A stretch of DNA of 64,000 bases, taken from Escherichia phage vB_EcoM-pEB20. The notes below the pieces were generated by a model that was given only the letters and a program-made list of their open reading frames with translations, was not told the origin of the DNA and made no database searches. Numbering within the stretch: the stretch's first letter is position 1; every line of letters starts with the position of its first letter. Below, piece after piece: positions 37,792 to 61,164 of the stretch. The DNA lies in the sequence record OP114733. One strand, 5' to 3'. The position numbers and the translations under genes were made by a program.

Positions 37792-37859
37792 AAATAATGA
37801 TGTACAAGCACCAAGGATGGTGATACTATAGACTTATCAACTACAGAGGAGTAAACAAA

Positions 37860-52043: not shown

Positions 52044-52070
52044 ATACTAATATCTAACCAAGAGGTATAT

Positions 52071-52283
52071 ATGCAGCAATTAAACGAAAGACAACTTCGT
52101 AATCTTACTGTAACCCAATTGGATGAAATCCGAAGAGAATTAGGACATTCTATTTCTCATTTAAACGAGGATATCCGTCAAACTGGTTCTAAAGCTGATT
52201 ATACACGCAAGCGCAAGCTGGAAAAATACCTCACAGATGTTAAGGCCGTCCAAAGGCGAAAAATAAATACTGGCCAAAATTAA
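52071..52283 (+). CDS. hypothetical protein (rI.-1 position)
   Basis: 70 aa between tk and rI. Confidence 0.5.
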
Positions 52284-55404: not shown

Positions 55405-55686
55405 ATGAAAAAATTAGTAATTGGTTTATTCGCAGTAATGATGGCATTCTCTGTTGGTGCTACCACGGGTTCAGCCAGCGGTAGTGCAGGAACTGGTGGT
55501 AACCAGTCTTCTGGGCCTTCCAACGGTTCGGTAAATGCATCACATTCTCAGGGTATTGAGAATATCAAATCAAGCTATATTAATAGCACGGCCGGACAAG
55601 CAACTGAAGCATGGTCAAAGGGTCGAGTAGTTACACGCTCCGTATTCTGTGATATGCCTAATTATGTTGCTAAGTGCGATAAGTAA
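55405..55686 (+). CDS. small secreted Gly/Ser-rich protein
   Basis: signal peptide MKKLVIGLFAVMMAFSVGA; two C-terminal Cys. Confidence 0.55.
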   Translation: MKKLVIGLFAVMMAFSVGATTGSASGSAGTGGNQSSGPSNGSVNASHSQGIENIKSSYINSTAGQATEAWSKGRVVTRSVFCDMPNYVAKCDK

Positions 55687-57269: not shown

Positions 57270-57797
57270 ATGAACGCTAAAGATATTTTCAACCTGGTAA
57301 ATTATAACGACGGTAAATTTAAATCTGAAGCACAAAGCAAGTTCTTTAATGACGTTGCTTATGGTAACGAGATTACCGTGGACGGAGGTCAGATTTTCAA
57401 ATCTCGCTGGAATTGGATTGTTATCATCGATTCAGTTGGAATTGTGGAAGTCTACAAAAACACTAACAAAAAACGTACATTATTCTGGTCTCGTGAAACT
57501 AACGAGCAGTACAAAAAGGATAAAGCATCTCGTTTATCCAAAGTAACCCAGGAAGATATCGAGTTTATCAAGAAAGATATCGAGATGTACGAAAATTTAA
57601 TCGCTGAAGACCAGGCAGTACTCGATAAGTTTGATGAAATTAAAGCTTCTCGTGAAATCCCTGACTTCATGAAAGAATCAGTAAACGAACGATACGCTCT
57701 CACTTCAGAACGTATTGCAAACTATACAAAACAGAAAGCAGAACGTATTAGTACTCTTCGGAAATTTGAAGAACGTTTAAAGACGGTTCACGCATAA
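57270..57797 (+). CDS. hypothetical protein
   Basis: 175 aa after SD GGAGGT. Confidence 0.5.
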   Translation: MNAKDIFNLVNYNDGKFKSEAQSKFFNDVAYGNEITVDGGQIFKSRWNWIVIIDSVGIVEVYKNTNKKRTLFWSRETNEQYKKDKASRLSKVTQEDIEFIKKDIEMYENLIAEDQAVLDKFDEIKASREIPDFMKESVNERYALTSERIANYTKQKAERISTLRKFEERLKTVHA

Positions 57798-57859
57798 ACG
57801 CTTTACCCAAGGACGGGTTATAATGGTTCTGAGTTCCAATTCAATCTGAGGAAATAGTT

Positions 57860-58855
57860 ATGAGCATTACATCTGATGCGGTAAAACATGAAATTAACGG
57901 TTTATGTGCTTCACAGATTAAAGTGTGGTTTAAAGACCATAATGATCGCAGAGCACTTAATTATGAACAAATTGCTATCCAAGTTCATCAATTACTGGTT
58001 AGTAAATTTGATTTTCATATGCCGTCTGAAATCTATACTAATCTGCCGCGAGCACTTATTAAAGCGTGTAAAGGTTATGGAAAATCAATGGCTGATGGAA
58101 TCTTCAGCGCGCTGAATAAACTTAACGTTCTGTCGATGATTAACTCTAACAACATCCTTCGTAATCTAGGACGTACTGATTTGTTCGGTCGTGAACAGGG
58201 TAAAATGCCTTTGAAATGGATTGTTGCTCATCTTAACGAGAACCAAACACGTTTTATGGCCGTAACAGCACGCTTACAAATGGGCCTAGATCGTCAGATG
58301 AACTTTAAAACTCATCCACGTTATTCAGGTTCAACTGACTTTTATAAATGTGAGCTTCAAAAGGTTGCAGGTAAAACTGTCTTAGTAGTTCGTGTAACGT
58401 TTGAAGGACGACGTCAAGGATATTTTGACATAATCGGCTCCGGGCTTAAACATTGTGGATTTATCGACGAAGTTGATATCAAGCGAGACGGCATTGGATA
58501 CCGTATTGGATATGTTTGTACTCTTAAAGAAGAGATTTCAGGACCAGCACCAGGACTAAAAGACGTTAGATATAAAGACGAGCTCATTGAAGAAATAAAA
58601 GAAGTTGAATATGATATCAACCAAGAAGATGCTCTTAAAGACCTTATTGACGAACTAAACCAAGACTTTATTCCGGTTCAGAAATTTGAATCAAAACATG
58701 CTGAGCAAATCAAATACTTTGAAGCTTTGATTAACGAACTTAATGTAACTATTCAACAGACCGACGATGAAATCTCACGATTAGCAGGCTTAAATGGTAA
58801 AAATAAAACAGAACGAGCTAATCTTATTCAAGTAGTAAAACTTCTTAAGGAATGA
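57860..58855 (+). CDS. hypothetical protein with C-terminal coiled coil
   Basis: 331 aa. Confidence 0.55.
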   Translation: MSITSDAVKHEINGLCASQIKVWFKDHNDRRALNYEQIAIQVHQLLVSKFDFHMPSEIYTNLPRALIKACKGYGKSMADGIFSALNKLNVLSMINSNNILRNLGRTDLFGREQGKMPLKWIVAHLNENQTRFMAVTARLQMGLDRQMNFKTHPRYSGSTDFYKCELQKVAGKTVLVVRVTFEGRRQGYFDIIGSGLKHCGFIDEVDIKRDGIGYRIGYVCTLKEEISGPAPGLKDVRYKDELIEEIKEVEYDINQEDALKDLIDELNQDFIPVQKFESKHAEQIKYFEALINELNVTIQQTDDEISRLAGLNGKNKTERANLIQVVKLLKE

Positions 58856-58864
58856 TGTACAACC

Positions 58865-58894
58865 AAGGAAGGTTGGAGTATAATAAATTTTTCA
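58865..58894 (+). promoter_or_regulatory. T4-type early promoter
   Basis: ATGTACA -35 variant; ccaaggaaggttgg then TATAAT; near-duplicate of 59851. Confidence 0.45.
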
Positions 58895-58910
58895 ACATGA
58901 GGAATATAAA

Positions 58911-59846
58911 ATGGCTTCTATTACACGTAGAGAACTTATCAAAGAATTTACCTCGAACGCATATACCCCAGGACCTAATCCTATCCGTATGCCTGTAAAG
59001 ACTCCTGAAGAGATTGAGGAAATCTGTTCATATTATGGGATTAATTCTCGTAAGTTTACTCAATTTGAATGCGTTACTAACACACCCGTTAAAGAGTTCA
59101 TTAAAAATGGTGAGTTCAGCCGTTTATTAGCCAAACAGAAACTTCGTAATTTTTGTATCGGCGGTTACGGACAATATTTCGCTAAGCAGTTCCGGAATAA
59201 CCTTAACAATCTGATGGCCATTGCTTCTCGTATTCGTCCTCAAGCAATTAACATGAAACATTTGAAATATACTTACGATAAGTTGGAAATCATGGTTATC
59301 AGTGAGAATGAGTTCACTCTCACGTATAAACCTAAGAATGATAACGTTGCTCGTGTATTCCACCAAGCGTTGGAAGTGTTAGGTGATAATATTCACCAGA
59401 TTAAAGCAATTTATTCTCGTGAGCTTAATATTATCAACCCTATCAAGAATAAGGGCCATATCGCTATCCAGGCTCGTGTATCTATTGGTAAAAAGGTTCC
59501 TGCGCCATGGTGGCACAAAGACTCTGAATACTATCAAAATCTTAAAAAGGAAAATGCAACGTTCGAAGCGTCAATTACTGCAACACCAATTGGCCATGCT
59601 GAAGTTCTAGGTGCATATTCTACTGCTCCATCTATACACATTTCACCGTCGACTAAACTGGAAATCTCTAACGGTCTTCTTCCTGCCGAAGATTACCATT
59701 ATAATCAAATCAAGGCCACTGTAGACCAACTATCCGTTGAACTTGACAAAGCACAAGCTAAGCTTCGTGATGCTCAACAAGTAGTTACCAAGCTCCAGTT
59801 GCAGTACTCTAAACTTTTTAACGCAATGAATGCGTTAAAATCATAA
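58911..59846 (+). CDS. hypothetical protein with C-terminal coiled coil
   Basis: 311 aa. Confidence 0.55.
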   Translation: MASITRRELIKEFTSNAYTPGPNPIRMPVKTPEEIEEICSYYGINSRKFTQFECVTNTPVKEFIKNGEFSRLLAKQKLRNFCIGGYGQYFAKQFRNNLNNLMAIASRIRPQAINMKHLKYTYDKLEIMVISENEFTLTYKPKNDNVARVFHQALEVLGDNIHQIKAIYSRELNIINPIKNKGHIAIQARVSIGKKVPAPWWHKDSEYYQNLKKENATFEASITATPIGHAEVLGAYSTAPSIHISPSTKLEISNGLLPAEDYHYNQIKATVDQLSVELDKAQAKLRDAQQVVTKLQLQYSKLFNAMNALKS

Positions 59847-59850
59847 ATCA

Positions 59851-59880
59851 GTTTACAACCAAGGATGGTTGGAGTATAAT
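59851..59880 (+). promoter_or_regulatory. T4-type early promoter
   Basis: GTTTACA then 18 bp (accaaggatggttggag) then TATAAT. Confidence 0.55.
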
Positions 59881-59908
59881 GAATTTATCTTAACGAGAGG
59901 AAAATATT

Positions 59909-60859
59909 ATGACACGTTCACATTACATTGAATACTTTGCAGGTCTTATCGCTAACGTTCATGCCCAACGTGCTTCTGGTGCACTAGGATTTGATGTTCC
60001 ACACCGAGATGTAGTAAGTGGTATTCTTCGCGATTTTGGTACATACACAGGCCAAGAAAATCATATCTGTAAAGATACTCAGAATGCGTATTCTCATTCA
60101 TTAGGGACGCTGCTTCAATGGTTCAAACGTTCTCGTTTATTATCTTCTACTGTAGCTCGCGATAACATTAAAAACTTTATGAAACCGAGCTTTATTAAAT
60201 CTGTGACATCTAAAACTGATTTGGTTGAATTCACTATTGTTAATGATGTTAAAAAGACTCATTTGGCTGATTGGTTATCTACCATTCCTGAAACTAAATT
60301 TGCTGATAAATTTGCTTGTGAATTCAATAAACAAGTGAATATGCTTTTTAAACATTCTCGTAAATTATTCACTGGCGGTGATGGCCGTACAAATAAAGTT
60401 CATGTTAAAGATTGGGTTACTGCAGTATTCAAACCAACTGGTAATGGTAACGCATCATTATCAATTGATATCCAGGTTCCTTATTACTACTCACGTAATC
60501 TCGGTACCATGAAAGCCGAAGAAATTAATAAGCACAACAAAACTATTCGTTCGTTGTCTTATAAACTTATTACATTGTTAGAGACTATGGATGTTGTTGA
60601 AACGTTCGACGAATCCGAAGATAACGGTTCAATGTTATATAGTTCTCGTACCCGAATTAAGTTGAAGAACCCTAACGAGTATAAACTTAAGACTATTAAA
60701 GAACCTAAAGTAGAAAAGGTTGATATCATGGCTGAAGAACGTGAATATCTCAAATCTCGTCTGAAAGAAGTCGAAGCCCAGATTGCAGAACAAACTAAAT
60801 CGTTAAAAGCTCTGAATGCGAAAGCGGATGGTTTACGAAATGCCATTGAGGTGTTATAA
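59909..60859 (+). CDS. hypothetical protein with C-terminal coiled coil
   Basis: 316 aa. Confidence 0.55.
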   Translation: MTRSHYIEYFAGLIANVHAQRASGALGFDVPHRDVVSGILRDFGTYTGQENHICKDTQNAYSHSLGTLLQWFKRSRLLSSTVARDNIKNFMKPSFIKSVTSKTDLVEFTIVNDVKKTHLADWLSTIPETKFADKFACEFNKQVNMLFKHSRKLFTGGDGRTNKVHVKDWVTAVFKPTGNGNASLSIDIQVPYYYSRNLGTMKAEEINKHNKTIRSLSYKLITLLETMDVVETFDESEDNGSMLYSSRTRIKLKNPNEYKLKTIKEPKVEKVDIMAEEREYLKSRLKEVEAQIAEQTKSLKALNAKADGLRNAIEVL

Positions 60860-61164
60860 TGAGCCTACGTCTTTTAGAGGATATTGATATGAGCACTAAT
60901 CATGACTTGGTTAAGTTTATTGACGATAGTTCAAAGATTGAATTTGTTCAGCGAGATAAAATCCACGGTGAAGAAGAGTTCGTTCCTCCGGCATGGAACG
61001 AAATAATGAAAATGGTTGAACGACGTGAAAATGCTGCCAAATCGGCAGCAAAACATCCATGCCCGGAATGTGGAACTATCCAAGTCCAACTGGTTAACTG
61101 GACCACTGATAACTTGAAATTGAAATGCCGTAAATGCTTCCACAAATTTGAGAGAACATTATAA
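60859..61164 (+). CDS. zinc-ribbon protein
   Basis: 101 aa; CPECG ... CRKC four-Cys motif. Confidence 0.5.
   Translation: MSLRLLEDIDMSTNHDLVKFIDDSSKIEFVQRDKIHGEEEFVPPAWNEIMKMVERRENAAKSAAKHPCPECGTIQVQLVNWTTDNLKLKCRKCFHKFERTL

Follow-up and report, generated by a model that had tools for sequence, protein, structure and literature searches.

What are three consecutive genes of similar size, two of them behind near-identical promoters, doing side by side in the genome of a T4-like phage? The question is raised by a 64,000-nucleotide (nt) stretch of the genome of Escherichia phage vB_EcoM-pEB20 (record OP114733; hereinafter, the window), in which the first-pass annotation, made from the sequence alone, had pointed to three adjacent proteins of about 310-330 amino acids (aa) with C-terminal coiled coils, here denoted p1, p2, and p3 after genes 1, 2, and 3. 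From profile comparisons across T4-like genera, we conclude that a single ancestral gene gave rise to all three, which are diverged paralogs homologous in both the N-terminal body, or head, and the C-terminal tail.

The three genes and their relatives in T4-like phages

The three open reading frames (ORFs) indeed follow one another as described, all on the plus strand: gene 1 (57860-58855, 331 aa), gene 2 (58911-59846, 311 aa), and gene 3 (59909-60859, 316 aa), each with a Shine-Dalgarno sequence of the GAGGAA type 6-8 nt 5' of the ATG. The 3.1-kb region occupied by the trio shows 98% DNA identity to Escherichia phage mogra (Mosigvirus) and 95-97% identity to many further Mosigvirus genomes (T4-like Straboviridae). 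The gene order around it is that of T4, from nrdC.11 through nrdC and pin to gene 49, and the T4 homologs of genes 1, 2, and 3 are nrdC.6, nrdC.5, and nrdC.3, respectively. In BLASTP searches, p1 matches T4 NrdC.6 (29% identity, E 3e-18), p2 matches NrdC.5 (23%, E 1e-8), and p3 matches NrdC.3 (57%, E 2e-118) and, more weakly, NrdC.4 (E 5e-5). Gene 1 is assigned to phrog_2257, with PF26899 precomputed on its homologs, and gene 3 to phrog_1435, with PF26897 precomputed. Gene 2 belongs to PF23882 (DUF7235), which it matches at 384.5 bits (E 5e-115; residues 15-310 on profile positions 1-307), compared with 420.6 bits (E 5e-126) for T4 NrdC.5 and a gathering score of 30 bits; genes 1 and 3 give no match to this model. 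Judging by these matches, the trio are new members of known, barely characterized T4 ORF families, one of them the anti-Dsr1 NrdC.5 family. In many phage records, nrdC.N genes, including homologs of this trio, carry the GenBank product name 'thioredoxin'. We dropped this annotation: none of the three window proteins has a thioredoxin or glutaredoxin match in Pfam or a CxxC motif, and only nrdC itself is a thioredoxin. The label is an artefact propagated from the gene names.

Pairwise BLASTP detects no similarity among the three window proteins, and hhalign with shallow alignments of close homologs (effective number of sequences, Neff, 1.2-1.8) finds no link among the three families. These nulls are false negatives, because the alignments were too shallow, and were resolved with loci from other genera. 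When the family alignments were drawn from the syntenic regions of T4, other Tequatrovirus, Dhakavirus, Gaprivervirus, and IMG/VR contigs (seven related loci), hhalign connected the nrdC.3 and nrdC.4 families at 98% probability (E 3e-13; 97.6-98% across comparisons) and the nrdC.4 and nrdC.5 families at 88% (E 3e-6). By these profiles, NrdC.3 and NrdC.4 are clear paralogs, and NrdC.4 and NrdC.5 probable ones.

All four families are joined through a bridging gene of 292-338 aa that lies, typically in one copy, directly 5' of nrdC.2 in more distant T4-like genera (we sampled Kanagawavirus, Mosugukvirus, Marfavirus, Jiaodavirus, and Tegunavirus; the Tegunavirus locus contains a second probable family member). 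The bridging family matches the nrdC.3, nrdC.4, nrdC.5, and nrdC.6 families at 95.5, 96.8, 97.6, and 96.1%, respectively (E 1.5e-8 to 3e-12 over 149-230 columns; E 3e-9 for the family of gene 1), and the IME523 copy of the bridging gene is matched by the hidden Markov models (HMMs) of both the NrdC.5 (39.7 bits) and the NrdC.6 (24.4 bits) families. The controls, namely, an unrelated 256-aa neighbor family, the NrdC.10 and NrdC.11 families, and reversed alignments, stayed at or below 4.5%. In the joint alignment, the motifs are collinear: an N-terminal M.TR..I comes first, then [FL]K...[LF]S...A...L.NF, F..EFN.....L....SRL..G..R, a segment rich in beta structure, P-[VA]-E, and finally the terminal kL..A...LK. 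The superfamily and HMM alignments show that all three window proteins carry four of these motifs ([FL]K..., F..EFN..., P-[VA]-E, and the terminal one) in the fixed order; in gene 1, they read FSALNKLNVLSMINSNNILRNLG, IVAHLNENQTRFMAVTARLQMGLDR, PVQ, and NLIQVVKLLKE.

In PHROGs and Pfam, the trio falls into three separate families, and none of the families in the libraries searched joins the nrdC.3, nrdC.4, and nrdC.6 ORFs with NrdC.5, a separation that may explain why no annotation groups them. A search of 1.84 billion representative proteins with the NrdC.3 profile returned 7 matches, one of them a spurious eukaryotic repeat protein. Another of the 7 is an NrdC.5 representative (E 4.9e-9 for the whole library), matched out of register, with profile positions 35-136 on residues 161-271; this match, which an internal repeat or a scoring artefact could explain, was not used as evidence.

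The trio evolves faster than its surroundings. Genes 1, 2, and 3 are 29, 23, and 57% identical to their T4 orthologs, whereas the neighbors NrdC.8, NrdC.10, NrdC.11, and NrdC are at 77-92%. The copy content varies as well: all four families are represented in T4, the NrdC.4 type is missing from this phage, and the NrdC.3 type is missing from Dhakavirus and Gaprivervirus. Conservation within the individual families peaks in the tail, which is preceded by a hypervariable linker that carries indels. Residues 283-330 of p1, for example, are almost invariant among homologs down to 69% identity, with indels in the linker 226-250, and the p2 tail is nearly invariant among its homologs. No family member was found outside T4-like phages in tblastn searches. 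The first-pass annotation had proposed cassette-wise duplication or diversification of one protein architecture. Diversification of one architecture is what we find; a recent or cassette-wise tandem duplication was rejected, given that each copy has its own T4 ortholog and that the copies are silent to one another in BLASTP. By all appearances, this is an old, fast-evolving, paralogous family. The proposed course of events is an ancient duplication followed by fast divergence of a single gene family, with nrdC.3, nrdC.4, nrdC.5, and nrdC.6 in T4 and, typically, one member beside nrdC.2 in distant genera.

Some of the relatives are rearranged. The NrdC.6, NrdC.5, and NrdC.4 homologs of Shigella phage Sf25 (locus L013, 6896-10623) are 378, 424, and 416 aa long and contain internal duplications of body segments, and in phage G8 (L010, 8950-9982) nrdC.4 is split into ORFs of 193 and 158 aa; both could be real rearrangements or assembly errors. 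The reference T4 nrdC.6 (NC_000866, about 52066-52140 of the record) encodes 275 aa, with a frameshift after ..QIEEL, compared with 295 aa in relatives; a different frame there still encodes the conserved tail, FRLSGLSSKAKSEREKLIKIVDLLKS, and extends to 12 nt before nrdC.5. This frameshift reflects either a genuine lesion of laboratory T4 or an error in the sequence.

Possible roles of the family

Among the genes flanking the trio, pin is a proven counter-defense gene. The same region holds nrdC.1, which counters Septu (bioRxiv 10.1101/2025.11.20.689424), and the gene of gp49.2, which counters OLD (PMC13096335). The one family member with an experimental phenotype is T4 nrdC.5, described as an uncharacterized early gene: phages that lose it fail to infect ECOR17 or Dsr1-carrying K-12, and its expression restores plating on Dsr1 hosts (Srikant 2022, PMC9391042). 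Dsr1 is a SIR2 NADase with a tetratricopeptide repeat (TPR) sensor that, according to a 2026 preprint, recognizes the phage major capsid protein (PMC12803255). The T4 genes of the trio were lost in evolved clones (PMC9391042) and thus are non-essential in T4. Taken together, the early expression and dispensability of these genes, their rapid divergence and variable copy number, and the anti-defense neighborhood argue for a counter-defense role. We consider this the best-supported role for the family, at somewhat better than even chances overall; the odds are better than this for gene 2 and worse for genes 1 and 3.

The trio would probably be transcribed early, two of the genes from behind sigma-70-type cassettes described below, such that the products are made before the host immune sensors fire and can then bind and neutralize them. 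Different paralogs would be tuned to different host proteins, as T4 NrdC.5 would be to Dsr1 (SIR2/TPR). The conserved heptad tail probably makes the proteins oligomeric, and, by analogy, the oligomer may bind the sensor directly and stoichiometrically.

Several points weigh against this account, from the family to the mechanism. Direct profile comparisons of nrdC.6 with nrdC.3, nrdC.4, and nrdC.5 are insignificant, and the link of nrdC.6 is transitive, via one bridging family of just 7 sequences. Neither the fold nor the coiled coil is structurally established, the AlphaFold2 (AF2) models having a predicted local distance difference test score (pLDDT) of 49.9 for gene 3 and 47.2 for gene 1; profiles compared with Protein Data Bank (PDB) sequences gave no match to any solved structure (best E 0.18), and no catalytic-looking invariant residues were found. 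At 23% identity to T4 NrdC.5, the target of gene 2 may differ or may have been lost. Direct binding of Dsr1 by NrdC.5, for which we found no published mechanism, is suggested by the analogy with DSAD1 and DSR2, and an anti-defense role of NrdC.3, NrdC.4, NrdC.6, and the three window proteins is by inference only. The promoter hairpins are weak (z -1.3 to -1.8), at -6.2 kcal/mol in the cassette upstream of gene 2 (z -1.8) and -6.9 kcal/mol in that upstream of gene 3.

The strongest competing explanation is that the paralogs have another early role in host takeover or housekeeping, for instance as a scaffold or adaptor that acts on host or phage machinery, the effect of NrdC.5 on Dsr1 being indirect or specific to that paralog. 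Counting in its favor are the gap in the published record on the mechanism of NrdC.5 and the lack of any recognizable inhibitor-like or enzymatic domain in the family in Pfam, PHROGs, and NCBIfam. Moreover, in all genera examined, the gene directly 5' of nrdC.2 is a family member, the stop codon of which usually overlaps the nrdC.2 start codon. In the window, the nrdC.2-like gene (60859-61164, plus strand), which encodes a four-cysteine zinc ribbon, has an ATG overlapping the stop codon of gene 3 (TAATG, 60857-60861). This arrangement suggests translational coupling of nrdC.2 and the adjoining family member, which perhaps form a functional pair; such constancy would suit a fixed partner better than targets that vary among hosts. 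However, the trio genes are non-essential in T4, evolve faster than their neighbors, and vary in copy number, a pattern typical of an arms race, in a region with several proven anti-defense genes. We therefore regard a takeover or housekeeping role as possible but on the doubtful side, and favor counter-defense.

Promoter cassettes and their hairpins

The first-pass annotation had also noted near-identical promoter blocks before 58911 and 59909, and this likeness was borne out. The 27-mer TACAACCAAGGA[A/T]GGTTGGAGTATAAT occurs at exactly two sites in the 64 kb, 58858-58884 and 59854-59880, which differ by one base; in 100 shuffles, there were 0 matches. The likeness extends beyond the 27-mer to ...AATTT and the Shine-Dalgarno sequence. 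Cassette A (58856-58884, plus strand), upstream of gene 2, consists of a -35 box TGTACA (58856-58861), a hairpin CAACC-AAGGAA-GGTTG (58860-58875), GGAG (58875-58878), and a -10 box TATAAT (58879-58884), and is followed by the Shine-Dalgarno sequence GAGGAA at 58899-58904. Cassette B (59852-59880, plus strand), upstream of gene 3, has TTTACA (59852-59857), CAACC-AAGGAT-GGTTG (59856-59871), GGAG (59871-59874), and TATAAT (59875-59880). Both rank with the best sigma-70-like sites found in the region: their hexamers match at 10/12 (A) and 11/12 (B) positions, and the spacer is 17 nt.

This anatomy resembles the published promoter-early stem-loop (PeSL) elements, which combine an early promoter of consensus TTTACW-N17-TAYWAT (PMC4122927) with a stem-loop that is most often located between the -35 and -10 boxes or overlaps the -10 box (PMC2839356), carry a Shine-Dalgarno sequence and ATG at the 3' end, and recur in repeated copies around variable, non-essential ORFs (PMC2839356, PMC4122927). 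Cassette B reads TTTACA-17-TATAAT and cassette A TGTACA-17-TATAAT, with one mismatch, and at both the 5-bp stem is the minimum-free-energy structure. The near-duplicate blocks are best read, on this anatomy, as PeSL cassettes flanking gene 2. Any promoter, terminator, or recombination activity of the cassettes is predicted from the sequence. A canonical intrinsic terminator was rejected for the hairpins, which have no U-tract and only weak stems.

The hairpin loop is conserved well beyond this phage. At equivalent intergenic positions across phages, the loop AAGGAN is constant and usually flanked by CC/GG, with at least 8 different complementary stems (ACCC/GGGT, CATCC/GGATG, CTTCC/GGAGG, AGCC/GGCT, TGCCAC/GTGGTA, TTATACC/GGTATAA, and CACC/GGTG, also ATCC/GGAT); because the stems covary, the hairpin appears to be under selection. 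In 358 kb (the window and loci L001-L013), there are 61 AAGGAN hairpins on the transcribed strand and 3 on the opposite one. In the window, such hairpins are seen at 37797-37831, 57805-57818, 58860-58875, and 59856-59871, located between or overlapping the -35 and -10 boxes of early-type promoters. The AAGGAN loop resembles the Shine-Dalgarno core and includes GGA, the minimal RegB recognition triplet. Right after the hairpins (58875-58885 and 59871-59881), GGAGUAUAAUA or GGAGUAUAAUG agrees at 9/11 or 8/11 positions with the RegB/S1 cleavage consensus GGAGRAYARAA (PMC1702504). Speculatively, the -10 box might also provide the A-rich portion of an RNase site at which read-through transcripts would be cut.

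The hairpin at 57805-57818 (ACCC-AAGGAC-GGGT) belongs to a shortened relative of the cassettes, AAACGCTTTAC, upstream of gene 1 (57797-57824, plus strand), with TATAAT at 57819-57824. In this block (TTTACCCAAGGACGGGTTATAAT, 5' of 57860), which folds at -5.8 kcal/mol and is also present in Mosigvirus loci L002-L004, the spacing from TTTACC to TATAAT is 11 nt, and a MotA box-like sequence, CGCTTTA / AAACGCTTTA, lies 13 nt 5' of the -10 box. Since the 11-nt spacing is too short for sigma-70 and a MotA box-like sequence is present, gene 1 may be driven by a middle rather than an early promoter.

The near-identity of cassettes A and B might result from selection for one strong consensus, without any duplication, gene conversion, or exchange: T4-type early promoters share an extended consensus, and the AAGGAN loop with its CC/GG flank is conserved in all phages examined. 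This explanation appears quite unlikely to us, because the stems differ at equivalent positions elsewhere, whereas within this genome the two stems, which flank gene 2, are identical together with their flanks, and because the block upstream of gene 2 is not shared with T4, which has no cassette between nrdC.6 and nrdC.5, but matches that of the downstream neighbor. Cassette-mediated exchange or gene conversion fits these observations without being proved by them. The repeated cassettes could supply recombination homology, and gene 2 might therefore be exchanged or lost as a unit. Extending this idea to the whole family, nrdC.3-nrdC.6 could form a diversifying battery of immune-sensor inhibitors that descend from one gene, each paralog being tuned to its own host defense protein (of which Dsr1 is the only one known), with tails that mediate homo- or hetero-oligomerization and with AAGGAN cassettes that act as both expression units and allele-swapping joints between co-infecting T-even phages; as a complete picture, we offer this only as a conjecture that is unlikely to hold in full.

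Protein architecture and comparison with known systems

The C-terminal coils of the first-pass annotation were recovered in a scan for hydrophobic a and d positions (best 28-residue window, with shuffling), a home-made heuristic rather than COILS or Marcoil, in which the best heptad window of each protein lies at its C-terminus: 281-309 in p1 (reached in 2/300 shuffles), 259-311 in p2 (0/300), and 280-307 in p3 (0/300). Each tail thus has consecutive heptads with hydrophobic a and d positions in a proline-free helix. The tail of p2 (59685-59843, plus strand; codons 259-311) comprises approximately six unbroken heptads, with V271, L274, L278, A281, L285, A288, V292, L295, Y299, L302, M306, and L309 at the a and d positions. 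In p1 (58700-58849, plus strand; codons 281-330), the coil is shorter: about four heptads (281-309) are followed by a Gly-containing break at AGLNGKNK and then by a terminal helix that ends in the conserved ..NLIQVVKLLKE. That the p1 coil is interrupted is also suggested by the AF2 model, in which helices 273-294, 302-308, and 316-330, all of low confidence, are separate. The heptad helix of p3 (60731-60856, plus strand; codons 275-316) appears in its AF2 model as one long terminal helix, 275-315, with a pLDDT of 69-81, the most confident part of that model. An NCBIfam search yielded only sub-threshold coiled-coil noise.

The structural comparison that the first-pass annotation had called for was run on genes 1 and 3, as monomers and with close homologs only (5 and 30 sequences, respectively). 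Although both models are poor, their secondary structure elements follow the same order at corresponding positions of the alignment: five helices precede a helix pair (about 118-148) and a beta hairpin (about 162-181), after which come one more helix, another hairpin, and a linker that leads to the terminal helix. Both models match the BFVD entry E5EYP0; the BFVD fold searches otherwise returned mostly the proteins' own homologs, plus weak full-length matches to T4-like phage proteins of about 320-370 aa. The layout that we propose is a largely helical N-terminal body, a beta-beta-alpha-beta-beta unit, a hypervariable linker, and the conserved heptad helix.

Is the similarity confined to the tail? 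The profile network stays connected (81-98%) when the last 65 residues are removed: body-only profiles link the bridging family to NrdC.6 (95.3%), NrdC.4 (96.5%), and NrdC.5 (81%), as well as NrdC.4 to NrdC.5 (90.5%) and NrdC.3 to NrdC.4 (97.8%). The first-pass annotation had envisaged a shared oligomerization tail on different effector heads, of which the shared tail stands (..kL..A...LK, with P-[VA]-E before it) and the different heads do not. Unrelated globular heads that gained the same tail by domain shuffling are highly improbable: the three proteins are silent to one another in BLASTP and shallow profiles and are split among three PHROGs and Pfam families, but the body-only links with clean controls largely refute this reading, and the body motifs are collinear and the predicted order of secondary structure elements is alike.

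Two other genes of the surroundings deserve mention. An ORF of 93 aa at 55405-55686, with a signal peptide-like N-terminus and a Gly/Ser/Asn-rich body, sits between the homologs of nrdC.11 and nrdC.10, where T4 has no gene. In the distant genera, a well-conserved protein of 256-263 aa, unrelated to the family by profile (it served as the negative control), is encoded shortly 5' of the single family member (L014 14555-15325, L015 15140-15928, L016 16927-17718, L017 2416-3186, L018 1958-2743, L019 1580-2353, and L020 1993-2763).

Both phage therapy and research on defense and counter-defense rely heavily on T-even phages. The gene family, the NrdC.5 phenotype, and PeSLs have already been published, and the known kinds of system are unchanged. 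What is modestly new is that NrdC.3, NrdC.4, NrdC.5, and NrdC.6 are united with the nrdC.2-adjacent gene of other genera and that the AAGGAN hairpin loop is conserved. Linking NrdC.3, NrdC.4, and NrdC.6 to NrdC.5 names three candidate counter-defense proteins per phage; with their fast divergence and copy-number variation, these are plausible determinants of host range, and the cassette anatomy offers a concrete, PCR-testable route for allele swapping.

Among known systems, the closest to gene 2 is T4 NrdC.5, with which it shares the full-length match to the same Pfam model, the position in the gene order, the size class, and the tail ..SKL.NA.NAL..; unlike T4 NrdC.5, to which it is only 23% identical, gene 2 has its own promoter cassette on the 5' side, which is missing in T4 at that position. 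Genes 1 and 3 are remote paralogs of T4 NrdC.5. Their counterparts are the uncharacterized T4 ORFs: gene 3 is 57% identical to NrdC.3 and gene 1 29% identical to NrdC.6, in the same genome order, but this phage, unlike T4, has no nrdC.4-type copy, and gene 1 keeps the conserved tail that the frameshifted reference NrdC.6 lacks. DSAD1 of SPbeta-like phages (for example, PMC10973363), which blocks the SIR2 NADase defense protein DSR2, is a functional analogy only: no sequence relationship to the window proteins was detected, and both the size and the target defense protein differ. The cassettes are similar to PeSLs (Arbiol et al. 2010, PMC2839356; Comeau et al. 2014, PMC4122927) in that they are intergenic, combine an early promoter with a stem-loop between the -35 and -10 boxes and with a Shine-Dalgarno sequence and start codon, and occur in repeated copies around a variable, non-essential ORF. 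They differ from PeSLs in their short stem-loop of 5 bp, which, instead of being of the published G-tract/C-tract or AGNA...TCNT type, has a conserved AAGGAN loop on covarying stems.

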